Assembly: GCA_964658305.1 (NCBI GenBank)
Contig: OZ210885.1
Span: 25,296,001-25,360,000, forward strand
From: Leptogorgia sarmentosa
Taxonomy: Eukaryota
Direction: 5' to 3'
DNA: 64,000 nucleotides
Part shown: positions 10,786-56,308 of the stretch, piece after piece
Numbering within the stretch: position 1 is the first letter of the stretch
Layout: each line of letters opens with the position of its first letter
Program-made: the position numbers and the translations under genes
The notes under the pieces: model-generated
What the model saw: only the letters and a program-made list of their open reading frames with translations
Databases searched by the model: none
Told to the model about the DNA's origin: nothing

Positions 10786-10843
10786 ATTCACTACAAATTT
10801 GTTTCGTATGACAAACAATGCTTGCCACACTCATCAGGTGAAT
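10786..10843 (-). ncRNA. Type I hammerhead ribozyme (inverted copy)
   Basis: Reverse complement of 12975-13032 with one G-C to G-U change in stem II. Confidence 0.8.
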
Positions 10844-12451: not shown

Positions 12452-12970
12452 GGTTACAGGAGACCCTACGCGCAGGTTTCGGGAGATTTACCATTACTCG
12501 GCGAATTTTTATCCAATTTCTCTCAAATTTTCTCCAAATATAGTCAGATAGATGAAAAAAAACATAGGGTTATAAAATATATCAGAAAGAAATAACTTTC
12601 CTGAATATTGTTACAAGTTTAAGTTTATGGGACCTTCGCGCGGCGAGCTATGTTAGATGTAGGTTTCACTAAAATCCTGTCAATCTATCATTTTTACTCT
12701 TCTCGAGTATTGCACTAAAAAAGGGTGTTCGATATAGATTGACAGAATTTTAGTGAAACCTACATCTAACGTAGCTCGCCGCGCGAAGGTCCCATAAACT
12801 TAAACTTGTAACAATATTCAGGAAAGTTATTTCTTTCTGATATATTTTATAACCCTATGTTTTTTTTCATCTATCTGACTATATTTGGAGAAAATTTGAG
12901 AGAAATTGGATAAAAATTCGCCGAGTAATGGTAAATCTCCCGAAACCTGCGCGTAGGGTCTCCTGTAACC
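12452..12970. mobile_element. Foldback MITE with TTAA TSD (Kolobok-type GG..CC ends)
   Basis: 237-bp near-perfect TIRs at 12452-12688 and 12734-12970; TTAA at 12448-12451 and 12971-12974. Confidence 0.9.
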
Positions 12971-12974
12971 TTAA

Positions 12975-13032
12975 ATTCACCTGATGAGTGTGGCAAGCAT
13001 TGCTTGTCATACGAAACAAATTTGTAGTGAAT
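12975..13032 (+). ncRNA. Type I hammerhead ribozyme in the Penelope 3' repeat
   Basis: Stem I ATTCAC/GTGAAT; core CTGATGA; stem II GTGTGGCAAGC-ATT-GCTTGTCATAC; GAAA; palindromic stem III ACAAATTTGT; GUA cleavage site after 13026. Confidence 0.85.
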
Positions 13033-13626
13033 AAATTCTTATGAAGTAAAGGCTGTTTCATCAGATGGCTGACAAATTTCGAAAAGTTTGCTGCTTATAA
13101 GTGTTTTGAGTCGGAAACGCGGGCATGGGCGTCAAACTATGACGCGCGAAACCGGACAAAATTAGCTAAACCGAATATATAGATCAATGTTACTATATAT
13201 ATAAAACAATGTTGCATATATGTAAATCAAAATCAAATATATAAAAGTAGCCGCATATATCTAAAACAAGTCACATATATATAAGACAAGTTGCCAATGA
13301 TATAAAAGCAGTTTGGCGTATATATAAAGCACATCGCATATATATAAACAAGTTGCAATTATGTACGGCATGATAACATTTTGCCTAACATTTTACAATA
13401 TATTTAAACAAAATTTTCATACTAAACATGTTACCATATATATTTGAGAAAGGTGACCGTATATAGCACATTTGGCATATAAACATAAAACACAATTGCC
13501 GAATATAAAACGAGTGCCGAATATATATAAAGCGTGGTTACAAAGTACAATACGGTTATATGAAATACTTCCTTGCAAAAAGCGGGTATCAGCAACGCAC
13601 CAGAACGAGGCACGAATGTGGTCAAC

Positions 13627-16600
13627 ATGGCCGACAGGCAAGTGCAAATTTTGAGCAATTTGATTAAAGCTGTTAGCAATGTCGCAGAAAGCGGTGCTGC
13701 ACCGTCCACCTCCCATGGTTTGAATAGCGAGCAAAGTAATACAAGTGTGGAAGAAGCGATTAGGAGATTGTTTCCATCAACCGCTTCAACAAGCCAAACT
13801 GGAAACCTTACTACAGAAAACGGGCCAAGCAGCAGAACCCGAGAGAACCATAATGTGAATGGCAATGCAGTGGGTGAAAATTCCGATCGAAATACTGGCT
13901 TTAATCCAAGCAATGTTTATATACCAAGTGGCAAGAAGAGAGCAAAGTCGTTTTCATCAAAGGCATCCAAAAAGAAAAGTGCTAAAGTTTCGCAAACGGA
14001 AAGAAAGTTGCTAAAGGACGTTATCTTACTGCCAGGGCCGAAAGTCAGCACTGTGCCAAAAGGCGTTGCACGCGAAGATCTGTTTGCACGGGGATTCACG
14101 ACAACCTTTGAACTGTCTCCTTCAATGATCGAGAAAGACATACGAGAAGTCTTAGAGCAAAAATTCCAAGATAAACTGCGCAACATTCCGGCGCCAAAGT
14201 TTACCTTCGTCCGGGCAGTGAGCAACAAAATCGTTGTTCCTGATGTGTCCACAGCAGGATCATCATCTGGTGAAAGCTTTGATGGACGAATGCTCAAGCA
14301 TTTTTCTGGACAAGGTCCGATATATATAAGAGCAGTCAAGGACATTAGTTCCGTATTTTTTCGTGGGCAGTGGGCGAAGCATAAAGATGACAACAGTGAC
14401 AGTGATGTCAGCAGTGAGAGTGATGACAGCTTACCTGCAGGTCTAACCGCACCAGGTTAGTTCATCCATAGACTTTTATTATAAAAAATAGATTGTCCCC
14501 TCTAATAATCCTCTATTCAGGTGAAGTTTATTATTAAGCACCTCCCTAATACACCACTCAATCCACCTTTGAAAGGGTGCAAAGAGGGTAAATTATTGGA
14601 AGCTAATTAGACTCCAGTATTAATACCACAGTTTGAATTATTAATCATTACTGACAATAATTACTGAATATGTAAGTTTAAAGCAGTGTGGACCGCCAGT
14701 TCTGACTGGGATATCTGTATAGGGAGTGTGGGGATATGTTAACTGTTCACATATATGATACAAGGATCATGGTTCTGTGCAGCTTCTGGAAAATGTGATA
14801 ATGACTGAAACAAGGGATTGGATATAGGAATGAATTAGGAAGAAGGATGCAATAGAATCACCATGCAACTTACTAAGAGAATTAATTAATTGCTGTGGTT
14901 CAATCAAACAATGTGGTTCAATCTGGTGATGACTAGTTATGACAAGTGGTAGCTATATAGAATAACCTTTGGGGAACATTGGGAGGTGCAGCAGATGTGC
15001 TGCTCTACCATAATTATATGATTGTGTTTGTGATGATTACTGATATAATTTTTTATTACCAGGGCCACATCAAAGACCAATGCAACCTGCCTGCCCAGTC
15101 ATGCCAAATTTGAGTTGCAATCAGCCATCAACTTCTAATGATACAATTGCAGCTTCTAACTCAAGTAGCCAAAGTAACATTTCAAGTACATGTAACAATG
15201 TAGTCACATGTCCTACATGCTGTATGTCTTTTCCTGTTGGGGAGATTGAAAGCCATGCTGATACTTGTGCAGAAGAGAAATTTGGAAGCATTGATGAAAA
15301 TCATTATAATGATCTAATGAATTTCTTTGATGTGGACCTTTATGAGCAGCACATAGACCCCATGGAACCAGCCATTATTGATATTGATTGTGGTGATGAA
15401 GACAACTCCTGCAGTACTGCATCTGATACACAGGCACCTGGCAACCATAAATTGAAAATCAAAGAGGCTATTACCAAGTTGAATCAGCTTGTTCCAGATG
15501 AACGTAGCAGATATCACATCAGAAGAAAAACAATTTTTGATGATTACATCAGTGCAAGGGAACGGTGCAAATGGCTGAAACCAGAGAACAGAATGAATGT
15601 TACATTCATTGGGGAACCAGGCATTGACAGTGGTGGACCAAAGCGAGAGTTTTTAACAGGTACCATCGCAAAATATTTGAATGTTGAATCACTCTCCTTG
15701 ATATTTGAATTAATTTCTACCTTTGCGTCTTTCAATGGTCTAGCAATTTACTTTATAGCCATCGGCCATGCAGGGAAAGAGACTAGCAGATTGCTTTGGC
15801 CACAAAATAGGCTTAAAATTCTGAAAAAAACTTAATAATCCTTAGTCATATATATCTCATCAGGTCGATGTACATAACTACTTGAAGATATCCCTGACAA
15901 TTGTGAAGCCTGGAGCACATTGCTTGAGTGTGTACTATATATATCACTGGAATGGCATTGTGTAGACTGACAATTTATTGCACATGCCTTATTTTTTTAT
16001 CATAATTAATAGATGCACTGAAGCATATTGAAATGAGGCTGTTTAATGGAAAGGGGATGCTTGTGCCAAGTACAGTGGCACTTACATCATCCCACTTCAA
16101 ATATGCTGGAGAACTGATGGCATTATCTGTGGTTCAAGGTGGTCCTTGCCCTAACTTCTTGTCAGAGCAACTTTATGACCTTTTGTCGAAAGGCTTGAAG
16201 GGCATCAAATTGTCCACCGACATGATCGAAGATAATGAAATGCGAAATGTTGCAGAAAAGGTAAATATTTGTGTTGTAATTACCAGTTTATAAAATATTT
16301 CTTTAATTAACAGATAGCTTCTCAGCTGGTAATTCAGGTAGACCATCACAAACCCTAGTGCCCAGCTGCACAACAGTCTACAAGTCTGCCATAATGGTTC
16401 AAGAGCAGGATTGCATGGTTTGCAGAGCTCTGTAGTGATGAATACATACAAAAGAGCTAAATATTTGTTCACTGCTGTACTTACAGATTGAACAAACACA
16501 GACAAACGAAGACTTGACAAATGTGCTGATGGAGGACAGTACACTGTCTGTGCTTTCCTTGGTTGGCTATAGAGGGGTTCCATCCAGAGAGACATTATCC

Positions 16601-17587
16601 TCAAAATATAGCATTGTCAGGTAAGAATTATTTGACATAACCTAAAGCTGTGATTGTCAACCCATGTTTTTCACTCTGTATATTATATATATATATATAT
16701 TTTATTTATGGGATAAAATACTGAGAAGGGAGAAACAAAATTATATATCTGGTCATTATAGAGCCATTACAGTGAAGGCAGTGATTGAGCCGCAACTTGG
16801 CCCATTATCGCAATTAGAAGAAGGTTTAAAGATGTATGGATTTCTCAATGAAGTTAAAACTAGCCCAGATTTATTTCAGCCATTGTTTGTTGCAAATGCT
16901 TCATACATGTTTGATGTTTCCCCCGAGGAATTTTTGATGGATGTGATGGTGACCTACAGTGATAAGCAGCGAGAAAAGCATGCAGAGGAGGATACATTTA
17001 AACACTTTTGTGATGTTGTTGAATACTTATTTCATGCTGGTATGTCTGTGTCTGTGCTATCCAGGGGTTACTGTGTGATATGAGAATCCACAGAAAAAAT
17101 GTGGTTTTGTCTGAGGCAATTATTAAGAAAATGTTAAAATATGCTGGCAATGTTTTATAATATTTATGCTGATATGATAGACTAAAAAAATAAATTCGCC
17201 ATATTAATTTTCGCAATTTAGCTGAGGAGGCTGGGCAAACAAGGGTGGGGTTTGATATTTGCACAATGTGAACACTTTACAGTGAAGTGTGAACAACCAT
17301 ATAATTGATACTTTCTTTGTTACCTGCTAGGGTCTGATGAAGTTAACCTGTCACTCTCAGATTTGCAAAAGTTCATAACTGGTACCTTCACTATTCCACC
17401 ACTGGGGCTTGGATGTCCGATTGAAATATGTTTCTTACATGGGTGCAATGAAGGCTGTCGCTGTAGACCAGTGGTATCCACATGCTCGCTGAGGATAACC
17501 ATACCAGTACATATCAACACTTTTACTCTCATGAAAGAAATGGTAATTTCAGCCATAAAAGAAGGAAGAGGTTTCGGAAATGCTTAA
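13627..17587 (+). CDS. Transposon-borne HECT-domain E3 ubiquitin ligase with UBZ-type Zn finger, 6 exons, 780 aa
   Basis: Exons 13627-14455, 15063-15659, 16013-16260, 16487-16620, 16762-17039 and 17331-17587 are all GT-AG and phase-compatible (2343 nt, no internal stop). Motifs: CPTC-x11-H-x3-C; VTFIGEPGIDSGGPKREF; AGELMALSVVQGG; QLEEGL; KFITG...PPLG; PVVSTC; terminal GFGNA. Confidence 0.88.
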
Positions 17588-17967
17588 AGGATGTGAATGC
17601 ATTGTAGTACATACTGTATTACAGAATATGGATAAATTACCCTATAAGACACTTTAAATTGGTATTCTACAGTATATTGTGTAACTAAAACACGGATCAC
17701 AGTAGTTTCTTAGTTGATTATTGGGTATGTTTGTTAATATTATTTATCCAGTTGAGTAAAGTTGACATTTTATGCACTTTAATATAGATCACCCAAAACA
17801 ATCAGAAAATAAAACCAGAACATGTGTGGCATGACATGCAGCTAAATAATAGCTATATTTGTTAATATTACTATTTATTTTGGCAAATGTTGAGGCTTAT
17901 GCTTTAGTCCAAGTTTATCATAAATACAGGATATAACTAAAATTGTGTATAGCAATTCATTAACAAA

Positions 17968-19812
17968 TTAAGGGTTCTCTCTTCCTGTTATAAGCCTTTC
18001 AATTGCTGTAAGGACTATCAAGTATGCCTGTTCACCATGCTCATTCCTGGGAATGTCAGATGTAGCTAAATCTTGCAATTGTGAAATTTCATCTTCAGTA
18101 AGATCAACATTTATTTCTGGTACAATCACATTATTTCGTGTTTGTATTTCTGGAACTGGACCTTCATCATCAATACCAAAGTTTCTTGCATTCTCGTCAC
18201 TCAAAAGATCCAAAACAGCTCCATGATTGGAGTTTGCATGATTGTAAAACCCCTCTGTCCAAATTTGATAGGGACTCCTGTTCCTCTCTGAAGACAGTGG
18301 ATGGTGATTCCATTGTTGGACAAGATGAAGTAATGCATGATTTATCCGTTGTTTGTAAACCAAATGTAAGGCAAGCAAATGTGCCTCATTTACTGGGTCT
18401 AACAGGTTATGTGATTCAAAGTAGTAAAATAGGTTTTTAAAGTAACGCACAACATAAAGGTTGACATCCTTCCATAATCGTTCAATCCGCTGATTGTGAA
18501 CGGAGAGCCCTGTAATAACTGGATTTCTTAAGACACCATAATGATGTAACATATGGCGTGCAACATGCACATTTTCAGTGCCATGGTCACATCTTATTCT
18601 TCTGGGAAGATGGAATTGCTGAATTGCCTCTTCAAACAGAGAAAGTACAGTATCTGCTCTGTTGTTGTCTGCGCATCTTAGGTAAACAACTGTCCGAGAG
18701 AACCCATCAATTGCACCATGCAGTACAAACCTCCAGCGTATTAACTTATGGTTTCCATCAGCATGCCTATATAAGGATGCAATAGGTTTCTTATAGCTTC
18801 GGCTTTGTACTGGCCCCTTTACCTGTATTCCTTTTTTGCCTATACCTGGCAACATGTCCCTACCCACTCTACGATAAATTGCAGCTGGAGACAGAAAAAC
18901 CTCATATCAACAGTAAGCATGTGACATATGCTTATAGCCTTATTGGCAAACCACTCTTGCTAAGTGTTGTCAATTATGCAATGTGCATACACTTGGATAC
19001 AATGTGGATACCAAGTGTGGTTCTGCAGCAATAATTATCCTGGGTCAGAGGGTCATGTTGGGGGGCATAGCCAAGATTATTTTATGTTCATTGACCACAA
19101 TTAGTACTTACCATAATGCATTAGGGGTGGGTACATTATACGCACGTCGGATGATTGCTGTTCTTCTTCTCATTTCCCGACTTATGGGGTCCACACGACC
19201 AATGGACCTTCTTATGCGATCTCTTTGGACTTTCAGACCTTGTGCTCTTAAGGAACCAATAACCATTCTTTCACCAGACTCTGGAGATAAGTTCAGTATT
19301 CTTCTAACAAAAACATCTAACTCGTCATCTGGGATGGCAGAATAAGCATTTTCATGCCCAATCATCATTCCAAGTTCCTGCCTTCTACGTCTAATAGTCC
19401 TCTCGGACACCCCCAGCATATCTGCAATTTTCTGCCAGGGGAAGTGCAATGAACGCAGACCTTCTAATTGCTCCTTTGGTATAAGAAAACGTGGCCGACC
19501 AACACGGGGTTCATCTCGTTCTTCGTAAGGACGTTGATAAGATTCTTCGCTTTTCTCAATGAAATTATTGAACCGTTCATTGAAATGATTAATGTAACCT
19601 TGTAGATCAGCAATAGTGGTTGCAAATCCACCGCAGGTATCCTCTCCCCAGTCATACACGTGGAGCAACACCACTATTCCATTCACGTATTCTTCTGCCC
19701 TGGAAACCAAAAGTTCTCCGAGTTGTGCATTATCTGAAAACGAATGGCGACGAAGGTCTTGAAACAAATTGATTCCGAGCGATAAAAATTCAATGATAGC
19801 TGTAAAGTCCAT
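17968..19812 (-). CDS. IS3/IS481-like integrase-core DDE transposase, 2 exons, 499 aa
   Basis: Exons 19812-19112 and 18766-17968 (phase-2 GT-AG intron, 1500 nt). HTH WQKIADMLGVSERTIRRR; catalytic motifs WHADGNHK, RCDHGTEN and HNQRIERLW. Confidence 0.92.
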
Positions 19813-20374
19813 CAGTGACTGTGAGTGAGTCTCGAAAACAACATGCGCAAAGCATACGAAGTATCAACTGTGCTTCAACGTGTACTTCCGCAGTTCCGCT
19901 GGCCCACTTGCATGGACCACTGTATCTTTCCAACTTTGTAACCACGCTTTATATATATTCGGCACTCGTTTTATATTCGGCAATTGTGTTTTATGTTTAT
20001 ATGCCAAATGTGCTATATACGGTCACCTTTCTCAAATATATATGGTAACATGTTTAGTATGAAAATTTTGTTTAAATATATTGTAAAATGTTAGACAAAA
20101 TGTTATCATGCCGTACATAATTGCAACTTGTTTATATATATGCGATGTGCTTTATATATACGCCAAACTGCTTTTATATCATTGGCAACTTGTCTTATAT
20201 ATATGTGACTTGTTTTAGATATATGCGGCTACTTTTATATATTTGATTTTGATTTACATATATGCAACATTGTTTTATATATATAGTAACATTGATCTAT
20301 ATATTCGGTTTAGCTAATTTTGTCCGGTTTCGCGCGTCATATCAAACAATGCATGCATTCCTTGATTTCCTTTC

Positions 20375-22520
20375 ATTGTTTAGGTTGTTTACTAGGTATT
20401 TCTTTTAATGATTACATGTCGAAACTATTTCCGATTTTTTTCTTTAGTAAATTTTGTTTGTTTTTATCTTTCAAAATACAGAGCTTTTCTTCTAAACAAA
20501 AATTGCATCTTTTTGTTCCTCCCGAATACGAAATACAATGCTTAATTATAGACCAAGTAATGTCGAAATCTTTGTTTTAAGTCCCCAAATATATTTCGAA
20601 AGTTCTGTTTCGTTTGAGTACCTTTTGTGGTTAAATGATTTAATATGGTTTCTATATCGCTCTTTAAATGTACTTGTCGTCATGCCTATGTAATGTTTTG
20701 TGCTGTTTGTGCAGGTGACAGTGGCCTTGTAAACTATGCCTTTGGTCATGCATTTTCCCTGAAGTGGGCATGTGTTCTTGTCTCTACAAGTGCATAGGTC
20801 TGTGGCCTCGCACTGTGGCTTACTTTTCCTAATCATACGTGTGTTGTGCCTAGAAATTATAGGCTTGACATTGTTCATGCAACTGTAACTGACCTTGACT
20901 GTGTTCCTATTAAAAATCTTGTGTAGCTTGTGGTGAGGTGGAAAATGTATGTCTAATAAGCCCAGGAAATCACATGCGATGTGTGTCTTGACACTCTTGC
21001 TGAAAGGGGGATTAAACCAAATGATGTTGCGTTGCCTATTTCTGCGTGTTTGTGGTGCTTGATTCATGTATTCAAGCTTGTGGTCCAAATTGCTGTGCCT
21101 TAGTGCGTTCTGGTAAGCAGGAGCACTTTCATGGAATGTGTGCTCATCTGATGAGAGTGTCGAAATGCGCTTGTTGATCGATGTGGGTAGTTGTCTTATG
21201 ATGGTGGGTGGTTGGAATGTTTGTTTATGTATAGTGGATCGTCATTAGGCTTTCTATATGGCTTAAAAAAAGTGACATCTAAGAAATTTACTACATGCAA
21301 ATTTGCCTCAGATGTTATTTTTAAACCAAAATTGTCGAAACATTTCACGAGTTCTTTCCTGGTTTTATCTGCCAAACGTGCTGATTTGTTTTTCATGATA
21401 GCCAATCCATCATCTCTGTATAAACCGATGTTTTCTTTGCCAAATTTTTCGCCTAGATCGTTTAGTATGAAAAGGCCTACAAGTTCACAAATTTCAGCTC
21501 CGTCGTAACTACCCATGGTTACGTCAAATAAGCTGTTGCTGTCTTTTTTTATCCAAGGTTTTCCGTATTGAAAAGTAGTGATTTCCTAGCGTGTTTTATT
21601 ATTGAAATGTCATCCTTTGATATGTGAGCCAAATTGGAAGCCCAAGATAATGCTTGGTCCAGTAAATTTTCTGATATCGATGGGTAGAAATCAACTATGT
21701 CAAACGAAATGAAAATGTGCCTATGTTTTTCTTTAATGTTGCCAAACCACTCTATAACGTTTTGGGTGTTTTGCCATTGGTTTCCTCAAATTGGGATTGA
21801 TTTTGTCATTCCAGATTTGCTTTTTTGCGGGATTGATTAGTCGGCATTTTGGGTTGTTTTCGAAATTTTCTTTGTGGTTTTTTAATGAAATAAATGCTTC
21901 ACGTTTTTTCATCTGTTCAATCCGGTCGCCAATTCCTAAATTCTTCGAAATGTGTTTTAGTTCATTGTCGATTTCCGAAATTGTGCCTTCTGATCCGTGT
22001 TTGTATGTTTTTGCGATGTTGTCATGCATGAGCTTGTTATATGCGTCGAGTGATGTTTCATAGATATTTCTAGTTTTGTAAGCAAAAACGAAAATGTTCG
22101 GAGACGAATTAATTCTCTTTAAATCATTTGCCAAAGACTTTTGAAATTGATTTTCTGCGGTTCGAAACTTAATGTTTTCAATTAGGTTAATAACATCATT
22201 CTCAAAAGGTTTCACTTCTAAAATTGTGGGAGGTGTTTTGTTGGAAATTTTGTCTCCTTTTAGGAAAAAATGAGCTTTCCATCTCACGTGTTTCAGTCCA
22301 CTTTCAACTTTTTCAATCAAATTTCTCAAATAAGCATCCTGTGATGGTATAGGAATGTTTTTCAATGAATAGTCGAATCGAAATTGTCTCATGTTTTAAG
22401 GTGAAATGTATATTCCGAAAACGAGAGTGCACAACCGATACGATACGGTATACGATAAAGTTTTGGTTAACGAAATGCCAAAAGAGTGCTCGATACCATA
22501 TAGATAGAGCAAATAGTATA
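20375..22520 (-). mobile_element. Penelope-like retroelement 2, full-length but disrupted ORF (RT + GIY-YIG)
   Basis: Starts MRQFRFDYSLKNIPIP at 22392; contains MGSYDGAEICEL, LYRDDGL, WFNPPF and IVYKA..YIG; several frameshifts. Confidence 0.9.
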
Positions 22521-22528
22521 GTATTTGT

Positions 22529-24007
22529 AGTATTAAAAGACCACAAAGAAAATTTCGAAAACAACCCAAAATGCTGACTAATCAATCCCGCAAAAAGCGA
22601 ATCTGGAAAACTAAGTAAGATCATCCTTGACAAAATCAATCCCAATTTGAGGAAAATTTTGAACCTAAACCAATGGCAAAACACCCAAAACGTTATAGAG
22701 TGGTTTGGCAACATCAAAGAAAAACATAGGCACACTTTCATTTTGTTTGACATAGTTGATTTCTACCCATCGATATCAGAAAATTTACTGGACCAAGCAT
22801 TATCTTGGGCTTCCAATTTGGCTCACATATCAAAGGATGACATTTCAATAATAAAACACGCTAGGAAATCACTACTTTTCAATACGGAAAACCTTGGATA
22901 AAAAAAGACAGCAATAGCTTATTTGACGTAACCATGGGTAGTTACGACGTAACCATGGGTAGTTAAGACGGAGCTGAAATTTGTGAACTTGTAGGCCTTT
23001 TCATACTAAACAATCTAGGGGGGAAATTTGGCAAAGAAAACATCGGTTTATACAGAGATGATGGATTGGCTATCATGAAAAACAAATCAGCACGTTTGGC
23101 AGATAAAACCAGGAAAGAACTCCATAAATGTTTCGACAATTTTGGTTTAAAAATAACAGCTGAGGCAAATTTGCATGTAGCAAATTTCTTAGATGTCACT
23201 TTCGATCTTAACAATGGAAAATTTAAGCCCTATAGAAAGCCTAATGACGATCCACTATACATAAACAAACATTCCAACCACCCACCAAGCATCATAAGAC
23301 AACTACCCACATCGATCAACAAGCGCATTTCGACACTCATCAGATGAGCACACATTCCAGGAAAGTGCTCCTGCTTACCAAAACGCACCAAGGCACAGCA
23401 ATTTCGACCACAAGCTTGAATACATGAATCTAGCACCACAAACACGCAGAAATAGGCAACGCAACATCATTTGGTTTAATCCCCCTTTCAGCAAGAGTGT
23501 CAAGACACACATCGCACATGATTTCCTGGGCTTATTAGACATACATTTTCCACATCACCACAAGCTACACAAGATTTTTAATAGGAACACAGTCAAGGTC
23601 AGTTACAGTTGCATGAACAATGTCAAGTCTATAATTTCTAGGCACAACACACATATGATTAGGAAAAGTAAGCCACAGTGCGAGGCCACAGACCTATGCA
23701 CTTGTAGAGAGGAAGAACACATGCCCACTTCAGGAAAAATGCATGACCAAAGACATAGTTTACAAGGCCACTGTCACCTGCACAAACAGCACAAAACATT
23801 ACATAGGCATGACGGCAAGTACATTTAAAGAGCGATATAGAAACCATATTAAATCATTTAACCACAAAAGGTACTCAAACGAAACAGAACTTTCGAAATA
23901 TATTTGGGGACTTAAAGATAATAACAAAGATTTCGACATTACTTGATCTATGATTAAGCATTGTATTTCGTATACGGGAGGAACAAAAAGATGCAATTTA
24001 TGTATAA
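22529..24007 (+). mobile_element. Inverted partial copy of Penelope-like element 2
   Basis: Reverse-complement match to about 20500-21890, with scattered substitutions and indels. Confidence 0.9.
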
Positions 24008-24690
24008 AAGGCCCTTTGGTGTTGCCCGTCCCCATGTCTGGTTTTGGACCCTCGTTCAGCTTTCCACAACAATTCGCAGCCAGTTTCGGGGTCTTTACTG
24101 AGCACTATATCACCCCATTTCAACTTTCTCGATTCGTCACACACTCGAAAGCCAAAGTACAGGGAAAGAATCCGCCAAACCATCCTCTGGAGAACTTCTG
24201 GGTCTTGTTTCCCGAAACAGACCTAACTCGAAGAACTGGTCTTCCTCTGCAATCGTTAACTCTCTACAAGCTTGTGGTCGATTTCCTTTGGCGTGTTGCT
24301 GTACGAGGTAGTGTTGCTTCGCTGAAAGAACTTCTCGCGATTTCGAAAATTCTTGGTCTTGTAAGATATTTATTGTGGAACTCTTATCGTTTAAATATCT
24401 TTGCAAACTTCTCTGGAAGTCCTTGAGAGAACTTGGTTCATAAACATCGCCATTTTCGTATATTCATGAAAAATTTCGCTGGACATTTAGTTCCTTCCCA
24501 GGTATGCTTTCAATTTCTCTTCTTTCATTTATTGATTCAAGATACTGTTTAAAGCACATTGGCACTAAAATTGCCAATTCCAATATCTTTCAAGCTTACC
24601 TACGGAATACTTAATTTCGTATTTTCGCTTGTCTTAATCATTTAGTTCATGAGAAAATTGTAAAAATGTTCGACGCTTGTCCGCCATTCT
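24008..24690 (-). pseudogene. Crypton/DUF3504-type tyrosine-recombinase fragment
   Basis: FFMNIRK..GDVYEPSSL..FQRSLQRYL, GNRPQAC..LT..EED, LSLYFGFR..DESRKLKWGDI and ERGSKTRHG motifs; frameshifted and truncated at the Penelope junction. Confidence 0.75.
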
Positions 24691-33245: not shown

Positions 33246-33799
33246 AGGGATACGATTTTGATACCTGGCACGCTTCGTCAAGAACTTGTTGGTACAGCTA
33301 ATCTCGAACTGAGCATCGTTTGGTGTCATTGGTATTCTCCGTCCATTTATCAAGCATGAAGGTGTCAGAGGGTACGAAACCCCTTCCTGTTCGTCGTAAA
33401 TATATGTAAGCGGTCTACTGTTTAAAGTAGCTTCTATGTCGATCAAAATTGTTTCCAATTCTTCAAACGTAAGAGACTTACGCCCGAGTGACTTCTTTAA
33501 ACATCTCTTTACACTCCTATGGTGCTTTTTTAGGTTCAAAATATACTGTTGTAAATTTATCGATATTTCTACGCGAAGGATAACAATTTGCCGTTTATAC
33601 ATGAATTTATCGAATAAAAATTCCTTTAATTATTCGAAATTTGTCGAAACGTAACTATAGAACAATTTTAATGAATTCGTCGATTATATAAATTCTTCGA
33701 TAATGCCTTGCGACCTTGGTGAATTGAGCCCGCAGATCTCGGAGGAGGATAATGAAATTATCAAAACTTCATTTAATTATGCTAAGAATTTTCAACAAA

Positions 33800-35572
33800 A
33801 TGGCGGAGGCTAATGTTGTAAATTTGTATTCATCACGATTAAGACAGACCCTTCTTGATCTTTCTAGAAGATTGCAGTCTAGCCCAGACGAGAACGTTTT
33901 AGACTTCGTTATATTTCGTTTAGAACAAATATGTGGTTCGAACGGGGATCGAACGGGGAACAGATTTAACACAACCTTTCATGCTATTTTAGATGTTATT
34001 TCTTTGCTTCGAGATTTAAGTTTACAAAATAGATCTTTTCCACGCGTCTTAGAACAAACCAGAAGCAACTCAGTGGGAAGACCGAAATTTGTGATCACCA
34101 GGGAACAACTGGTCTACATGCTTGAATATGACATCTCAGTACCAAACATTGCACATGTCCTTGGAGTGTCTCAAAGTACAATAAAAAGGCGGCTTAGAGA
34201 ATATGGTATTTCCATCCGAAGCGACCACTGCCTTAACTGATATAGCACTGGATGAACTTGTAAGAGGTGTGCAGGAACAATTTCCAAATGCTGGATATCG
34301 AAGAATTTATTCTGTGCTGAGGTCGAGATCAATAAGAGTCACTCAGGCAAGAGTTAGAGATTCATTGCACAGGACTGATCCTGAAGGTGTGGCGATGAGA
34401 TGGTTGTCAATCACTCCTAGACGGGTGTACAGTGTTAGAGGTCCTCTTTCCTTATGGCATATAGATGGCAATCACAAACTCATTCGGTAATTAATTTCTA
34501 ATTATAAATCAATCATATTTTATGGAAAGCTTAAAATGAAAATCTAATATGCTTAATTATCTCAATTGTATAGATGGAGGATTGTAGTGCATGGAGGGGT
34601 TGATGGCTATACACGCATACCAGTATACTTGAAGTGTAGTACAAATAATCAAGCTGATACCGTGCTACAATTGTTTCAGGACGCTGTGGCCGAATACGGA
34701 TTACCATCAAGAATAAGATCTGACAAAGGTGGTGAAAATGTCCTTGTATCAATATTCATGCTCAATCATCCACTAAGAGGCCCAGGTTGAGGTAGTATGA
34801 TTGTGGGCAAAAGTGTGCACAATCAGAGGATTGAGCGATTATGGAGGGATGTCTTTGATGGAGTTTTATATATATATTACCATCTCTTTTATCACTTGGA
34901 AGATTCCTTAATTATTGACCTAACAAATGAAATGCACTTTTTTGCATTGCATTTTGTTTATGTGCCAAGAATAAATAATCATCTTGACCTTTGGAAAGCA
35001 GGATATGTTCACCACCATATTAGGACTGCTGAAAACCGTACACCTATGCAGCTGTACATCCTTGGCTTACTAAGAATGCGTGGAAATGGTTTTACTGAAT
35101 TAGATTATTTGGAAAATGTTCCGGAGGTAAGTATGATAAAATCTGATCAGTAATTTGAAAATTGAGTGTTTTAATCAAACAAAATCACTCATTGAGCAGC
35201 AGCTCTCTCCACTTGACGAGTAAAATAGTCTGACATTAGACAGTAAAACACCAAAAGTGGAGCACACTGCAGTTCAAAGGATTGACAGTGGGCGCATGGT
35301 TAAATTAATTTATTCAGTAGCAGACTGTCCACTTGATTGATTACTGAATTTTAATCTAGGAGGATTTAGAATCATATGGCATTGATTATGACGATCCTGT
35401 GCCATTAGAGTCAGATGAAGTAAACAACATTGTTGTTCCTCCCACAAACAACCCATGTTCCCGAGAAAGATACCAAGAGCTTGTCCAATTAATTAACCCA
35501 ACCAGACAGAGTGATAACTACGGAATTGATATTCTCTTGGATGTCCTGGCTTTTCTGCAAGCATCAATATAG
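33800..35572 (+). pseudogene. IS3/IS481-like DDE transposase, 3 exons, with a frameshift at about 34225 and a TGA at 34788
   Basis: [37 protein letters not shown] and HNQRIERLWRDV; last exon YGIDYDDPVP..YGIDILL. Confidence 0.9.
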
Positions 35573-36059
35573 AGGTACTGAATACAAGTAAAGGTGGAGA
35601 TTATTCAAAGACCCTAATTAAATTGATTAATTAAGCTGTTTTCAAATCATAATTGTACTTTCATTATGCATTGACATAACACTCGTTCTATGATATATAT
35701 CTAGCCTCCGGTAAAAAGATGTAACAATGTGCCAATAATGATGAACACAAAGAATTTCAATACCAAATGCAACATATTGTTTCATAGTTTTGTCACATCA
35801 ATCGCTTTATCCCTCAAGATTGCAGGTTTTAGAGTTACAGACTTACAGTTTACGGTAAAGATTGCTATAAGATGCGTCAAACGCTCAAAAAACTAAACTA
35901 AATGTGAGAAGGTTCAATTAGTAGAACACCACAATTCCACGACAAAAAAAATTCAGGCCGCGCCCAAAACATGTGACCACGCCCACAAAAACCATGTAGC
36001 CATGCCCACATTTCAGCAATTGAAATCCTGGCTAATACCTTGCTGGTGGCAAACTCTGG

Positions 36060-39000
36060 GTAATCTTTAAGCAATGAAAAAAACCTTAACTAAATTCATC
36101 ACAAATTTCTGACAAAGAGCTCAGTGGTAACTAACCTTGTTCACTGCTCTCATCAATGAAATGTAGAAGCATAACTTTCACAACATGGTCACCACATAAG
36201 GGAGGGAATCTGAGTTTACTTTTGACAATACTGGCATTCACTAAATTCTCTGTCCATGTGAACAATGGTGCCAAAATGTCAGGATGATCGGTTATATTTC
36301 GTCCAAAACACCATTTATTTTAAGGCCTTCCTTCAACTGGTCCAGAAGAACTTTACGTTTATTTAAAACAAAATGGCACAATATGCATTGCACAATTTCA
36401 TTCTTGTTTTCAAGCTAAAAGAAAAGAACAACAACTTAATGGTAATACAGTTGTACTCACACAGTCACACCTTGAAATATTACTAGATAAAACCATGTTT
36501 ATACTATAGGTACTGGTTAGACTGTACTTACAGATAAAATTGAAGTGTTTCCAATGTCTGACAGTATGTCGATGAAAGTGCTATCCCCATTCAGCTCATC
36601 CACATCCAATTTTGAACTTGCCTTGACAACCTTTAATGCAAAAAAGACGAAATTAAAACTACTACAAATGCTAACTAACTGAAATACCACATTTTTTTTC
36701 TATATTCATCTTTTGTAGATATGCTGCAATCTCTGGATCATGCACATCAGACAGTTCTGCAAATGAGATTGCCTTTCTGATGTCACCATATACAATGTAC
36801 CAGTAACACACTGGTGAAAGCCTAGATAAACCTAATCCACATTGGGAAACAGAGTGTGCGATCATTTTTCCAATGGCCTCTATGATGCCAGCACAGGCTT
36901 TAGGACACATTCGCCTTGACATTACAATAAGAATTTATACATATAAATACCGTATACAGCTTCTGATGCTAAGTCGTTATTTGCTTGCATATTCATGAAA
37001 TTCTCCGTCATTTCCATATTTATATTGTGCCCAGAAGTTCAAGAAAAGCTTCGTTCGGTTCAATATATCCGCCATATTGTATGTACTAGCACCCAAGCCA
37101 CACAGGATGTAAATCTCGCGCGGAAAATTATGCACGCAGTATAGCGCAACTAGAAATATAGAGGGTAGGAACAAACACCAATCACTCGCAATATCGACGT
37201 TCGAAGCGAAAGGAATGGATGCTTCCATATACGGCATAAACGTGTCCCCAACTTCCATATATGGCACAAACGTGTCCTCGCAGCTGAAATGAATATTGGC
37301 GGGTAAATTTGAACGCAAAATACCTTCAGTAATATGGAACAGCATGTGAACTGCGTATATTATGGCAAGGAGAACTTTAGTATGTAAGTCTAACCAATTG
37401 TTTATTCTTAAATTGTAGTATTCTTCAACAAATAGTTCTTGCAGTTGAAAAGCTGAATGCGAAATGTGATTATAAATACGTCATATGATTCCTCCCGCTT
37501 CGAACGATTTAAACATATCACGTGGTACAGAATTCGCGTATTTGATTGGGTTAAAGAGTGACAACGCCCACTTTGTTCCTACCCTCTATATTTCTAGTTG
37601 CGCTATATCGCGTGCATAATTTTCCGCGCGAGATTTACATCGTGTGTGGCTTGGGTGCTAGTACATACAATATGGCGGATATATTCAACCGAACGAAGCT
37701 TTTCTTGAACTTCTGGGTACAATATAAATATGGAAATGACGGAGAATTTCATGAATATGCAAGCAAATAACGACTTAGCATCAGAAGCTGTATACGGTAT
37801 TTATATGTATAAATTCTTATTGTAATGTCAAGGCGAATGTGTCCTAAAGCCCGTGATGCCAGAGAAAACAATTCGGCTACTATATGCTGGTAAAAGTCTT
37901 TTAGGAGGCCCTTCAAACAGCCTAAGACCATCATCATCCCCATTCGCCAACTTTGCATACACCTTATCGAAAAACTCCCTACAAACACCCCCTGTGTCAA
38001 TTGCTGGCTGGTTAGAAAACGTTATCCTCAAAGGACGAGATGCATCAAACCCAGAATCTTTGTATATGACAAGAGCATCGGAGAGTAAGCGATCGTCATC
38101 AGTTGTAACTCTTAAAAAAGGCCCATTCAGCTTTTTTCCAAGACGTTTGATAATAGATGGAATGTCTGAAATTAATTACAATGACTTACAAATTAATGAA
38201 ATCACTAATAATTAATATGTAATTTTATTTATTTCAAAGTGATAAACTATTACAATTTACAATACTTCATTACAATATTTCATTTGCATAAATGTCAATT
38301 TTCTTCTGCTCACTTTTGTTGCTTACCATTTTTTTCATTATTTTGGGATTTGAATAGAATTGATGCCAATGGCCTATTAAATAATTCTTCATCTCCACTG
38401 CTATCATCACTATCAACTGATACTAAAAACAACCCAATGATTAATTCACTGTAATTATTTCCTATATAAAAACTATATAATTTAAAGTTTGTACCTATGT
38501 TGTGTGAAACACTAGTTTGATTGTTTTGTTCCTCTTGTTCCTGGAAAGCATTTGTCTCTAAAGGACCAATAAAGAATAAGAAGTTGGTTTTCCAAAAAAA
38601 AAATACTCAAGAGTAAGAATAAGGTGTATTTACTCAGGATGAGACCATTCTCATACAGGGTGGATTTTGGCAGCTGGCAAAGGGGTGCTCCAACTCTTTT
38701 CTGCCTAGCTCTAAAGTTACAGTAGTGTAGTGTGTTCAATAAATAATTATTATTAGTAATAGAATTATTCTAAAAATTTGTTGCCATTGAAGATTTGTAT
38801 CTTCAACTCAACTTATAGATCCTGAAATATTCACCTTTTGTTAAAACAATGTCAACAGCTTTATTGATATCTTCATTCGCTTCTGTACAAGCTGCACTCA
38901 ATACAGCATGTTCAAGATTTGGAAATATATTCTGCAAAGCTTGATCAAGATTTTCTGCACAAAAAAATTCAGAGAATATGATGCTCAACAAAATGCTTTC

Positions 39001-40577
39001 AATGTATAGCTGCACAAGAATGTTTTAAATTTTCAGCACACCTTGTAACAATTGAGTTACCTTGTTCTCCTTCACTTTCTTCTGAATGCATATAGTCAGT
39101 TATTGGAACTTGCACAGGACTATCACAACTATAGATTTCAGAAACATTATATAAGGATCGTTGACAAGTAGATTTTGAAACAGGGAGTTGTTGCATGATT
39201 CTTTCAACACCCCACCCCATCGTGGACCATTTCAATTTTTTTTTAAATGTTCTGCAAAAGGGGGAGGGGTTAGTCTTGAATCCACGATTTCAAAAATGAA
39301 CAGAACAAATACACACTTTAATGCCTAATCAGCTGTTGATCCGGTTTATGATATGGGCTGGGAGGGGGGGGGGGGGGGGAACAAGTCCAACTGGTGGACT
39401 AAATATATTTGTTGATGCCCCTAATTGTATAGTAATTGTATATATTATATACTGAAGATACTCTAATATCTTATTTTATTGACTGTATGAAATTATGAAC
39501 TAACCTGTCAGTAGATACATGCTGTCTTGAAGGGCCACCACCACATATTTGCTGATGATCTTTTATTGCAGACATCATTATCTCATCATTGCAGTTGACA
39601 CATCGGACTTTTGGTGAGCAATACAACTCCTTAAAAGTGCAAATAAAACTATTTTTAACATTCTCTAAAACCCTATACTCGTTATTTATATAGACTAACC
39701 CATATTAAGACATGGGTTGGAAGTGTTATAAAGTTTCTGTAAAGGATTAACATTGCAACATCCTATTGTACATGCATACCTACAAAATAATAGCAGATGT
39801 GCACCGTACCTGAGCCACTTCATTATCATTTAACTTTATATCCTGTTGGAGGGGTCTCAAGAATGCTTTAGCTTGACCAAGTGCACTCTTCAAAAAATTG
39901 ACATCATACCCCATTGGAGGACAAGGCACATTTATCAATGTTTTTGAGTTTCCATCAGATGTGCGTAGAATTTCATATCCCCCTCCATCCATGAGGCTGG
40001 GGAAAGTTTCCAGTAACTTCTCGTGGACATGTGATGAGTCGCCATTTTTTAATAACGTTATTTTTTGTTCTCCCAATCCTGCCAAACTTAGTCTGATTCT
40101 TTCAGCAGCACTTGGAGGACTGCACTGATTTACTTTACTCAAACAAACAAATGCTTTGGTGAATGTATTTTTTTTAAGACTTGCCTTCGAATAGGGTGTG
40201 GTTGTGTTTCGAACATTTTTATAACTGGCACTGGCAGCACGAGAAACATGTGATTGTCTAGATCTAGTTGCAGCAGGAGGTCGATAACCAAATATACGTC
40301 AATGTTCTTGCAATGCCGACGATAAGGTAGACGTCTGAACACCTGGGGCAGCGGGTACAGGTGGGGCAACTGGTGTTGGGGTGCCAGAAGACACAGGGAT
40401 TGCTGAACTTGGAAGTGGCAGTTGCACGATTGTTGAAGTGGCAGATGCACCATTCGCGGGAACATTAATACTGCCACGGACAGGTGTCGAAGCTGGTGTT
40501 TGCCCAGCAGGAAAAGAAACGATGCCATTAGCAGCTGAAATGAGTCTTTCGGCGCAATCTCGCATAATATTTTCCAT
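36060..40577 (-). pseudogene. HECT E3 ligase gene of element 2 (UBZ-like + CUE-like + HECT), disrupted
   Basis: Exons include 40577-39810 (TGA at 40299), 39629-39505 (CVNC-x11-H-x3-C), 39128-39061, 38954-38835 (IFPNLE..INKAVDIVL) and one from 38165 (ITFSNQPAIDTGGVCREFF..IGKMIAHSV); later LDQLKEGL. The catalytic-Cys segment was not found. Confidence 0.8.
36892..37855. mobile_element. 964-bp non-autonomous TIR element inside a HECT exon
   Basis: 284-bp TIRs at 36892-37175 and 37572-37855, CAC..GTG ends, 7-bp TSD ATGCCAG. Removing it restores IVFSGIIEAIGK. Confidence 0.9.
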
Positions 40578-41239
40578 TTTACCGTCTAGTATAAAAGCTT
40601 CTTTTAAATAACATGAATAATTATGAAATCACTGTGTGAGAACACGAAAAATCGTCCAGGAACTCAATTCTCAATAAAACTCATTTATGGAAAACTTGAT
40701 GTAATTTTACTCAAAATAAACACATTGCGGGCTCAATTCACCAAGGTCGCAAGGCATTATCGAAGAATTTATATAATTGACGAATTCATTAAAATTGTTC
40801 TATAGTTACGTTTCGACAAATTCGAATAATTAAACGAATTTTTATTCGATAAATTCATGTATAAACGGCAAATTGTTATCCTTCGCGTAGAAGTATCGAT
40901 AAATTTACAACAGTATATTTTGAACCTAAAAAAGCACCATACACTTCTGACCATTCGTTCCCACATACTCCTGTGCAAAGGAGCCTTTTTCGAAATAAAT
41001 TCCCATGTAACTCCTTGATTTGTTAAATAACGTTCCACACTCGCACCCCGAGTAATTGTTCGTAATTCCTTAGCCGCCGCCTTGAAGGTCTTTGCATTAT
41101 CGGATATAAGCTTCCTAGGCAGTCCTCGTCTAGTAACAAACCGACGAAATGCCAGCAGAAATAGCTTAGCGAACATATTCTTGAGCAATTCTAGATGTAT
41201 TGCGCGAGTTAATGCGCAGGTAAACAAGCATACAGTATG

Positions 41240-50291: not shown

Positions 50292-50480
50292 AGCTGCTGA
50301 GGAAAAAGAAGATTCTCTTTGATACATACTGCTGTAAGAGGCATTGGTTTTGGATGGAACAGATGTTCGAATAATTGGGAATATTTTTCCATAAGCTCGA
50401 GGACACCAAGGCTTTTCAATCCCTTGCGTATTTGGTCTAGTGCCATCTTCCGCTTGCCAACGACTTCATACTAGTCCGTA
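50292..50480 (-). pseudogene. HECT-domain relic
   Basis: EVVGKRKMALDQIRKGLKSLGVLELMEKYSQLFEHLF aligns by eye with VLNKRKVLLDQLKEGLKINGVL..HPDILAPLF of element 2. Confidence 0.65.
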
Positions 50481-52482: not shown

Positions 52483-55239
52483 AAATACACTGTATTATCA
52501 CAGAAGTTGCCACTCAAGATTTACAAATGTTACGTTGGTCAAACGCACAAAAAATAGATGCTCTAAAAACTTTGAACCCCACACAGAAGCAGTTCAAGCA
52601 GATCAAGGGTTAGAGGCTGAACATTTTATCCCACCAAAGAAATTTTTGAGATCGTCCATGTCTACAACAGAAAAACCTAGAAGCCAAGCAATTCTACTGC
52701 CCGCTTGCATAATCTGTAACAAGGAAGAAATTTATATTACCGACACGGTGAGCCACTTCATACATAAATGTTAGTCTTGCCAAAAAAAACTTTGTAGGAA
52801 AAAATGTATTTTTCATTTTGTGGTATTTATTTTTTGTATTGTTTCTTTAATTTGACAGTGTTCTAAAAAACGAAAGCTCTGCAAGTTAATTAGCTGAAAC
52901 CATTGATGGTGGCAAACTGTGGGAAGCGGCCATACGGAAAGACTACCAGCGGATTCTGGTGCAAATATTAGGTAAGGACTGTGTATAAGTCAAATATCAC
53001 ATTCGATGCTATAAAAGTTATACATCATTTCTGTCAAGGCCATCTACTTGTTGCTTCACACTATGAAAACATCAAGTTACTAAATACACAAATTCGTTTG
53101 AATCATTTTGCCGTTTTGTTGAGGAGGAAATAATCGACGGGCGCAACATCTATTACATGTCAAGGCTCAAGGATAAATTTGTTAAAACAGTTCAAGATGT
53201 TGAAAACGAAGACGCAAGTAACTACCGTACCTATCGCTTAAAAGAAAGATTGCAAGAAAGATTTCCTTGATTGGTTTTCCACACAGCCAAAGTTAGGAAC
53301 AGGAGTGAAATCGTTTACGTGGAGGATTCTTATCAAGGAAATGTAGCAGAGAGTCTGTTAATCTCAGAGGAGAGAGGCAGCGATGATTCGACAGATGAAA
53401 AGAAACTTGAGGACGACGTAAGGATGGATCATGCGAGCGTCGCATTGAAAGATATTTATTTGGTCGCGTTGGAGTTAAGGGAAAACATTCAAATTCACAG
53501 CAGCTCATGGTATAAAAACTTGCCACCACTTTCCACCGATATCAGCAGCGAGAATGTAAAAAAGGTTGTGTCCCCTCTGCTTTTCAACTTTATCGCTTGG
53601 ATGCTTGGATACTCGACATACCCGGAAGAGTCCGACTATGTTGAATTAAATGAAACTGACACTGTGAAGATTCGCAGTAAAACAATTGTCCGGATGTTCT
53701 AACCTGATTCATGTCTTAAATGGTCTACGACATTGTGTATCCATGTCTTCTACGGCGGCATATGATACGGCGCTCGCACAACTAACAATCGATACATCTG
53801 ACATTATACCTAGAGAATTTGTTCCAAAAGAGCCTATAAACTTAGTGTATGATAATATTGATTTCCAAGAAGAGATCACAAAACAGACACATGTAACGAA
53901 TGGAATAATTATCCAGAAAATTGTACAGGAAAGCAACACTCGTCCACAGCAAGAAATGAAGATTAGCAAGTCACAGCGCACAGTAAACGTACCCGAATCG
54001 CAAAATGTGCAGTTTAGCATTGGAATTAAGAAGACCCCCAATTTCCAAGCCGAAACCCGTCAGGCTATCACCAGAATGCCTTTTGGGGAAATGGCACAAA
54101 GCCTTGATATGGCCTACGTGTTAGTGAAGATGGTGCACTCGGACAGTTATGTTTTTGCAGGATGGACGGATTTCAACATTTTACTACGACAGGAAAACAT
54201 CCCAAGCGTTTCAAGAGTAGGTTACCTCCCAATTGTTAATGTTCCACCAATGGAATACTCGACGATTAATACCATACTTAAAAGAAGCACAGATATAGTT
54301 GATCAATTAGAACTGTGTTATGCTACATTAGTTTTCGATGAGGCCGTGTACACAAAAGTACAGCACGTAAGGTGTAAAAATGCATCTTTCTATAATCGCT
54401 TCGTTGTTCACCCAGGAGAATTTCATGCTGTAATGTCATTTAAATCTGCAATTTCCAAAATCTTCGAGGACGGAGGCCTTAAGGTATGTGATTGCAAAAT
54501 GTAAGCGTGAGGATGGCATGCAAGCATAATACGTAACGGTAAATCTCCGAAGAATGCCTCACAAAACTTAATGGAGAATGTCAATTTTTATAGATTTACA
54601 GTATACCGGGTGGCGCAAAAAAAAGTGCAACTGTTCAATTATTTGTAACTCAAAAACCATACACGGTAGAACCCTAAATGGAGTTTCATTGCATCCAGAT
54701 ATGACAGTTTAAACGTTTGTTAACAAAACAGCAAACAAAAACGAGAAAACATCTCTGTTACAAGGAAGATGAAATTTGCACTTCAACTATATTTGTTAAA
54801 ACGCTCTTATGATAAAATAGTGACACGGTTATAAAATCAGTTTAATAGGCCGTTTTTAGCTAATTTGTGACCGTTTGAAAATTGTTCATAGGACGTGCTT
54901 ATCGAATCTGGTGCAGTGGTGAGGGATCGATCAAAGGTGTTATGTCTGGCAAGCATTATAACCGGGCAGTCCACAGTCATAAAATGATGTATGAAGCCCC
55001 TCAACGGCTTAGATTCAAAGCATTTTTGGATACGCTGGATGACGGATCACATGATGAAGTTATTTCGTTTGTCAATACCGTACTAGAAACGTTTCCAATG
55101 ATGTGTACGAGAAAATTGAAAGCAACTACTTCCAGGATTTACTAAAGCGCTACGAGGCATTCATCGCCGATTGTACAGCAAATTCGAAAACCTTTGCTTA
55201 CTGGTGTATGTATATCGAAATGGCAGGTACGAAGCTATA

Positions 55240-55491
55240 CAGAGTGTCTCAAAAAACGGAACACACATAAATTAATTATGTATTCGCCTAATTCGTTATT
55301 CACGATAGTTATTCTTAACAATATTTTTATGAACTTGACATTTTTATGCCTCTAGAATTTCATATTTTGTGTACTATATAAATCAAAGCAAGACAAGTTA
55401 AAAGTACTGTCATATAACAAAGCGATTTCGTTTTTAATGCATACATACTACATAATTGTTTTTGCGTGTTTCGTTTTTTTAAAGCACACTG
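55240..55491. mobile_element. Degenerate Tc1/mariner MITE in an Academ intron
   Basis: TA-CAG.GTG..T.AAAAAACG.AACAC at both ends in inverted orientation. Confidence 0.55.
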
Positions 55492-56308
55492 TAGATACAG
55501 CATCAGTAGTTCGAATGGGAGAAAAAGAAGGTAGCTGCATTTGTGTAATTATAACACTTAATTAAATTTGCTTGATATTTCCAGGCACGCTTTTGATGTT
55601 CATTCGAGCAACTAGAGAGGTTGACTGGGTTCTTCACTTGGCAGCATTTAGGGCAATGATTCTGTGGTTTTTTGTCTGTGATAAAGTACACTATGCAAGA
55701 TATGGCACTGCGTATTGGCTGGAGATGATATCATTAGAAACAACTCATCCAGGTAATCTCTTTAAATAAATAAGTGAATAATTTTTTGTGGTGTTAACTA
55801 TTTAAACTATCACAGTAGCTCTAATAAGAACACCTGTTTTAATCGAGTATTATATTTTGTCTGAAATTGTAGGAATTCTACCGGAGCTTGTCGTCAAACT
55901 TTTCGGTGCAACGACAGGATGACCACGGATTCTCAGGATTGGCATGTGACCAAACAATTGAGCAAACCGTCAACCGTCGATACGCCGATGGTTATTATGT
56001 CATGCAGAAAGAGCGGCGATAACAGAAAAATGCAAGTCTATGGCTGGAGTAAACCACGAACAACGGTATGTAATAAAATAATCTAATTAAAAAAATTTCA
56101 AGCAGGAGAGTTAGTGTTATGTATTTTTGCAGATCGTAGATACGTAGATGTCCTCATAAGTAGAGTAATAAGACTGTCTGTTGTGTCTTTGTACTATTAA
56201 GAAAGATCTTGATGGAGCTAAACGTCAACGCTACGAAAAATCTGTAAGTGATATAACATCAACGATCTCTAGCATGGCAAATCCATTCAGTACCGATGAA
56301 AAGGAACT

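Follow-up and report, generated by a model that had tools for sequence, protein, structure and literature searches.

We analyzed 64,000 nucleotides of the Leptogorgia sarmentosa genome (assembly GCA_964658305.1, contig OZ210885.1, forward-strand positions 25,296,001–25,360,000). This whole stretch is called the window, and all coordinates are window positions. By its sequence, the segment 33518–40941 (element 2) is a decayed cut-and-paste DNA transposon of the IS3EU/GingerRoot superfamily. It carries a second gene that faces the transposase gene and encodes a ubiquitin-like domain, a zinc finger, a CUE domain and a HECT domain. The identity of the element and the ancient pairing of the two genes are as good as certain. 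The HECT module has probably been swapped between IS3EU lineages while the ubiquitin-like domain stayed with the transposase. As a whole, we consider a decayed IS3EU element with a standing ligase gene, a swapped HECT half and an E3 ubiquitin ligase that would serve its own element to be the likely explanation.

The termini of element 2 are terminal inverted repeats (TIRs) of 217 and 216 bp, 98.2% identical with one gap, that run from TATGG to CCATA. The flanking target-site duplications (TSDs), CACTCC and CACTTC, are identical at 5/6 positions (0.6% by chance). Contigs from public sequencing runs X1 and X4 span the insertion point without element 2 and contain a single CACTTC. The insertion target was a minus-strand integrase fragment (Pfam rve), which we take from its motif to be of BEL/Pao type. 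The two genes are convergent, and the second gene starts at 40577 with ten exons found. The features of element 2 are as follows.

33512–33517 (+): left TSD copy CACTCC, one mismatch relative to the right copy
33518–33734 (+): left TIR, 217 bp, starting with TATG
33800–34486 (+): transposase exon 1, with the N-terminal region, helix-turn-helix (HTH) domains and the first catalytic D in WHIDG
34487–34573 (+): transposase intron 1, splitting the R of HKLI-R
34574–35128 (+): transposase exon 2, with the Pfam rva_4 core, D-36-E spacing and a premature TGA at 34788
35360–35572 (+): transposase exon 3, with the C-terminal tail and a TAG stop
35794/35795 (no strand): gap site where about 515 bp of the sister copies are missing, the presumed place of the last HECT exon (C-lobe, catalytic Cys)
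36136–38165 (−): HECT-domain exons 38165–36710 (split by the next element), 36630–36532 and 36414–36136
36892–37855 (no strand): non-autonomous inverted-repeat element (miniature inverted-repeat transposable element, MITE) with CAC..GTG ends and 7-bp TSD ATGCCAG, in the HECT N-lobe exon
38327–39629 (−): five small exons of the second gene, with a C2HC zinc finger (39629–39505), a CUE domain (38954–38835) and an acidic linker
39810–40577 (−): exon 1 of the second gene, with the start codon, a low-complexity stretch and a ubiquitin-like (beta-grasp) domain (40175–39828)
40726–40941 (−): right TIR, ending with CATA
40942–40947 (+): right TSD copy CACTTC

The window holds another transposon of this kind (element 1), which served for comparison.

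13138–20341 (no strand): element 1, with 409-bp TIRs and TSD TCAAAC
13627–17587 (+): second gene, six exons with an open 780-aa frame, encoding a ubiquitin-like domain, a zinc finger and a HECT domain with the catalytic Cys
17968–19812 (−): transposase, two exons with an open 500-aa frame, DD34E (catalytic residues D237, D294 and E329)

A first-pass annotation of the window described element 2 as a distant relative that repeats the layout of element 1, and most of its observations were confirmed. The TIRs are unlike in length (217 versus 409 bp; those of element 1, at 13138–13546 and 19933–20341, are 99.8% identical) and blastn finds no DNA similarity between the two elements. Gene models put the first transposase intron in phase 2 in both elements, within the R of HKLI-R (element 2) or the W of WHADG (element 1), ten codons apart. 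Both elements have TATG..CATA ends (TATGA..TCATA in element 1), convergent genes and a 6-bp TSD, perfect in element 1 and backed in element 2 by the single hexamer at the empty site. The claim that the HECT genes differ in exon structure holds for exon number (six in element 1, at least ten found in element 2) but not throughout: at column 120 of the HECT profile both genes have a phase-0 intron, and they probably have the final phase-1 intron in common too. At the protein level, identity is 40% between the transposase cores (248 columns) and 24% between the HECT domains (223 columns).

IS3EU/GingerRoot elements are defined by TA..TA termini and 6-bp TSDs (PMC10045372), and fungal IS3EU families have termini of the form TAYGG..CCRTA (PMC12730594). 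Here and below, statements about cited papers refer to the searched passages of those papers. Both window elements have TA..TA termini with TIRs, 6-bp TSDs (6/6 positions in element 1, 5/6 in element 2) and an IS3/IS481-like DDE core without an HHCC zinc finger, with the first D 100–300 residues from the N-terminus. Pfam matches on the transposases are to rva_4 and HTH domains, with no integrase zinc-finger match. Compared by eye, the core motifs agree with the IS3EU rows in the supplement of PMC10045372, and with IS3EU-1_CVi motif for motif. The transposase frame that an autonomous element needs is open in element 1 and broken in element 2. Ginger1, with its YPYY, zinc finger and GPY/F hallmarks and CCGG/CCGT target, was ruled out as the superfamily by the non-specific 6-bp TSDs and the lack of a zinc-finger match.

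To see how widely the pair recurs, we used 97 loci that carry related transposases. Of these, 80 were the best among 523 confirmed metagenome stretches, and the other 17 were all those on genome contigs. The latter sit in prokaryote bins, and their split genes suggest that they are contigs of eukaryotic hosts. A HECT profile iterated on these loci matched 42/97, and none of the shuffled loci used as a control. HECT matches lay downstream of the transposase on the opposite strand in 37 loci, downstream on the same strand in 0, upstream on the opposite strand in 4 and upstream on the same strand in 4. With at least 2 kb of flank available, a convergent HECT gene was present in 24/42 loci (23/36 families) and an upstream one in 1/35 loci (Fisher p = 8e-8 on families). 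Four further loci (L031, L043, L077 and L083) are complete TATGG..CCATA elements with a 6-bp TSD and both genes inside, and L075 is such an element with a TSD match of 5 bp. The catalytic Cys is retained in 34/35 HECT rows that cover its column. The first-pass view that the pairing is old and not a one-off capture is borne out by these counts, which show the pair to be recurrent and more frequent than chance. Convergence as the general layout is true of most HECT-bearing loci, but divergent and tandem layouts also occur. The proposed association within 10 kb is looser when counted from the HECT side. In five assemblies picked for containing a transposase, with places merged by hand, 11/24 HECT places had one of the 19 strong transposase places no more than 10 kb away (convergent in 4 cases, divergent in 3 and tandem in 4), and 13/24 had no transposase within that distance.

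Lineages with head-to-head or tandem genes are L088, L053, L047, L074/L080, L054 and G004:C39; L047 and L054 are sisters in both gene trees and have unlike layouts. No replacement companion gene recurred in HECT-negative loci (15 of 76 downstream open reading frames, ORFs, by Pfam), where AAA (L025), CUB, EGF, helicase and DUF6589 were seen. The AAA-ATPase ORF of L025 (2665–4475, −) is convergent to the transposase, in the usual HECT slot. No relative was found among viral contigs. In five prokaryote bins (G001–G005) there are long contigs on which HECT and IS3EU genes are split; these contigs are likely contamination from eukaryotic hosts.

The pair was said to be inherited vertically, which predicts congruent gene trees. 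We compared the trees of 30 transposase–HECT pairs, kept from 43 after dropping 12 for short coverage and one duplicate. The trees have 9/27 splits in common, against a permutation mean of 0.27 and a maximum of 3 in 2,000 (Mantel p = 0.005). These common splits are all shallow, six of them with 92–100% support in both trees, and the deep nodes disagree. The transposase of element 2 clusters with those of L037, L083 and L088 (95%). Its HECT domain is closest to that of L004 (39% identity versus 26–30% to the nearest transposase relatives), in both HECT halves. When the two window elements are represented by spliced models, the HECT alignment rejects grouping element 2 with its transposase relatives (approximately unbiased, AU, test, p = 5e-7 and 1e-5), so HECT modules have likely been exchanged between lineages. 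Conversely, the transposase alignment rejects element 2 together with L004 (p = 9e-5). Two further tree conflicts are weak (p = 0.05 and 0.11). Vertical inheritance and congruence hold only at shallow nodes, and the HECT domain of element 2 is rejected from its transposase clade with AU p values from 5e-7 to 0.004.

The ubiquitin-like domain behaves differently from the HECT domain. Its type changes once on the transposase tree (1/210 labelings, 10 elements) and four times on the HECT tree. In one protein, P0003, a type B N-terminal domain is combined with a HECT domain like that of element 2. An Amphimedon protein has the type A domain, as in element 2, with a HECT domain like those of L043 and L083; this is the unswapped combination, and it therefore points to the lineage of element 2 as the recombinant.

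The N-terminal domains (about 110 aa) of the two second-gene products, here called passengers, are homologous (hhalign 94%, E = 1.4e-7). AlphaFold models of the two domains have mean predicted local distance difference test (pLDDT) scores of 94 and 77. Across hit lists they match ubiquitin-like folds, with best Z scores of 7.8 (79 residues; root-mean-square deviation, rmsd, 2.5) and 6.4 (103 residues; rmsd 4.0). A zinc finger follows the domain in both passengers. Because they have this domain and an intron position in common, both likely descend from one ancestral gene. In 19/42 HECT-bearing loci, a piece boundary also lies close to profile column 120. Among clusters at 50% identity there are 2,355 relatives of the ubiquitin-like domain, which belongs to no Pfam family. 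Of the best 150 relatives, 144 are shorter than 320 aa; two, both among the longer sequences, extend into a HECT domain. The domain also occurs in Neuralized-HECT and SAM-HECT clusters. By predicted structure, residues 108–230 of protein P0001 resemble the N-terminus of chordate C2H2 zinc-finger clusters (template modelling, TM, score 0.67–0.69). P0125, a protein of 2,095 aa, has 12 matches to the domain profile and no Pfam family.

The named proteins nearest to the passenger of element 2 are both from octocorals: P0001 at 62% and P0284 at 76% identity. P0284 is CAB3978922.1, deposited as 'G2 M phase-specific E3 ubiquitin-ligase-like'; its Pfam matches are to HECT and the C2HC finger only, with no PHD/RING family. 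This bears out, for some proteins, the first-pass suggestion that G2E3-like predictions are passengers of such transposons. P0001, P0284 and element 1 all have the N-lobe and the C-lobe with the catalytic Cys. Searches of the PDB confirmed the HECT fold and found no close relative. Host G2E3 proper was rejected as the identity of the passenger, since zf-HC5HC2H (the N-terminal PHD/RING-like fingers) is unmatched in the element exons, P0001, P0284 and P0275. A broader idea is that the whole G2E3/GL-Metazoa class would be an IS3EU transposon gene with a transposase-matched ubiquitin-like domain and an exchangeable HECT domain, vertebrate G2E3 being a domesticated descendant and invertebrate G2E3 'expansions' transposon copies. 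We regard this as speculative and rather doubtful. A single-exon relic of a third such HECT gene lies at 50297–50461 (−), 38% identical to P0001 (E = 5e-6), with no transposase of this type nearby.

Element 2 itself is a dead copy, with frameshifts and stops in both genes. The first-pass annotation mentioned neither this decay nor the loss of the last HECT exon, and it did not name the superfamily. The transposase frameshift near 34225 is a 5-bp deletion relative to sister copies, and contigs of all four public runs compared have the 5 extra bases. A programmed IS3-like frameshift, which would be conserved between the HTH and catalytic frames, was rejected for this site, as the deletion is private to some copies and the bases are present in 4/4 runs. 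The TGA at 34788 is a sense codon in 3/3 public runs that cover it. Lesions of the HECT gene are a stop near 40300, the 964-bp MITE, a mutated splice donor at 36709 and a 2-bp insertion near 36293. The MITE and the 2-bp insertion are missing from the contigs of 4/4 runs, and the donor is intact in 3 of 4. Only the HECT N-lobe is left; the last exon, with the catalytic Cys, is gone. About 515 extra bases stand at 35794/35795 in 2 of the 4 runs and would hold this lost C-lobe exon. A degraded form of it was sought within element 2 and not found (score 29 versus a shuffled mean of 27; 60/200 shuffles as high). Near-identical copies of element 2 occur in runs X1–X18 under four coded organism labels, and long contigs of such copies differ at about 2–4% of sites. 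These copies may reflect close relatives or horizontal transfer. No RNA source for element 2 was found among the matches listed.

In established DDE chemistry, TIR-bound transposase cuts the element out and inserts it via a staggered cut, here of 6 bp. The second gene, with its ubiquitin-like, zinc finger, CUE and HECT parts, is a long-standing component of IS3EU elements. The HECT half of element 2 likely came from a different IS3EU lineage, through recombination at a point behind the ubiquitin-like domain. We infer that the second protein would be an active E3 serving its own element. Its ubiquitin-like domain likely confers lineage specificity by contact with the cognate transposase or transpososome, and the zinc finger and CUE domain likely bind ubiquitin. 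The HECT domain would be a generic, exchangeable catalytic unit that ubiquitinates the transposase or proteins at the integration site. That the transposase is the target is a tentative suggestion, a little short of even chances. A complex prediction run without alignments, on the ubiquitin-like domain of element 1 and its two transposase exon products, scored 0.00, to which we give no weight either way.

Instead of acting on the transposase, the ligase could be a counter-defence enzyme that acts on a host silencing or chromatin protein and never on the transposase, its ubiquitin-like domain tracking the transposase by linkage or host range. For the TET/JBP genes of fungal IS3EU elements, a role against methylation silencing has been proposed (PMC12730594). 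A HECT domain that evolves fast and can be swapped suits an arms race, and the predicted likeness of the N-terminal domain to chordate C2H2 zinc-finger proteins fits a host target. Linkage alone, however, predicts the opposite of the domain-type result, because the convergent layout puts the HECT exons closer to the transposase than the ubiquitin-like exon. We think this possible but unlikely. Strict vertical descent, in which the two genes have been inherited together ever since the pair arose and the tree conflicts are saturation artefacts, would explain the nine common splits and the N-terminal domain and intron that the passengers have in common. It is improbable, as the AU tests reject it in both directions, the HECT domain of element 2 departs from its transposase kin in both halves, and P0003 combines a type B domain with an element-2-like HECT domain. 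Finally, the passengers could be independent passive captures of host G2E3-like genes, much as GingerRoot elements capture gene fragments in Selaginella (PMC6839031), and 13/24 HECT places do lack a nearby transposase. This explanation is hardly credible given whole genes with the catalytic Cys kept, an orientation fixed at 37:0 and a common N-terminal domain that is not of G2E3 type. G2E3 proper is also reported absent from Nematostella and Trichoplax (PMC2837046).

Several results weigh against a standing ligase gene with a swapped HECT half. A convergent HECT gene is missing from 14 loci whose downstream flank spans 2 kb or more; the genes of L047, L053, L080 and L088 are divergent and those of L054 lie in tandem. 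For the loosest HECT constraint, the AU test gives p = 0.004 yet the Shimodaira–Hasegawa (SH) test does not reject it (p = 0.18). The HECT domains are only 20–40% identical and were merged from genomic pieces, so an apparent swap could arise from misalignment or from unequal rates. The domain-type test has 10 elements only, and type B is a loose group. Distances between ubiquitin-like domains correlate modestly with those of the transposase (0.34) and the HECT domain (0.18). Fold matches of the N-terminal domain all have Z below 8, which indicates a common predicted fold and does not imply function. Pairwise, the element 1 protein scores 27.8 bits against P0001, hardly more than the 24.4 bits of human E6AP.

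The remainder of the window holds other mobile sequence. Element 1 is flanked on both sides by inverted reverse-transcriptase-like sequence (10786–13032 and 20489–24010), presumably of Penelope type by its motif. At 53067–56020 (+) lies a decayed spliced transposase-like gene, whose longest ORF has no Pfam match and which we take from its motif to be Academ-like. A 622-aa ORF at 1107–2975 (+) has a weak DUF4371 match and probably encodes a hAT-related transposase.

The literature covered was PMC10045372, PMC11934779, PMC12730594, PMC3673628, PMC2837046, PMC9700323, PMC6839031, PMC2836005 and bioRxiv 2021.09.26.461848; Repbase entries, a supplement of PMC3673628 and Kojima's 2019 review lay outside the search. 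Within it, we found no paper on an IS3EU–HECT pairing or a transposon-encoded HECT ligase, and those transposon papers whose main text was checked for the term HECT do not use it there. Repbase may already annotate a second IS3EU gene, because names such as IS3EU-1_CGi_2p show two proteins for some families. The superfamily itself is known; relative to the searchable literature the ligase partnership is new, and the novelty of this locus lies in the likely module swap. Proteases that remove ubiquitin or SUMO are known from transposons, and a ubiquitin-adding ligase as a standing second gene is not in the searched literature. Such a ligase offers a testable way into transposase or host control by a poorly studied superfamily. 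This locus contributes a test of gene trees, a likely exchange of the HECT module and the ubiquitin-like domain. There is also a practical consequence for annotation. Because a protein deposited as G2E3-like is this passenger, G2E3 'expansions', such as the 20 copies in a hadal sea cucumber that were read as adaptation (PMC9700323), should be checked for transposases and TIRs on their flanks.

The elements agree with IS3EU/GingerRoot in their TA..TA termini, 6-bp TSDs, integrase-type DDE core, WHxDG(N/Y)xKL and HNQRIExxW motifs and N-terminal HTH (PMC10045372, PMC6839031), and in having animal hosts, corals among them. They differ in the HECT second gene, which is not described in the searched passages of these two papers, and in TIR length (217 and 409 bp versus 100–150 bp in Selaginella GingerRoot; PMC6839031). 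HECT class IV (G2E3, GL-Metazoa and GL-Bikonta; PMC3673628) likewise has a highly divergent HECT domain, and G2E3 is the best-ranked named family by predicted structure. Unlike that class, the passenger lies inside a transposon, lacks PHD/RING and has the ubiquitin-like domain, C2HC finger and CUE domain. It also keeps the catalytic Cys, whereas the mammalian G2E3 HECT domain is described as non-functional (PMC3673628). Ginger1 elements with OTU or Ulp1 domains are also integrase-type DNA transposons with an enzyme of the ubiquitin/SUMO system, but theirs is a deconjugating protease fused to the transposase (PMC2836005), as against a conjugating ligase encoded here by a spliced gene of its own. 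Fungal IS3EU elements belong to the same superfamily and carry a second enzyme gene opposite to the transposase, an alpha-kinase (plus TET/JBP) in place of the HECT ligase (PMC12730594). Since an opposite-strand companion is present there too, the companion slot seems to be general in IS3EU.

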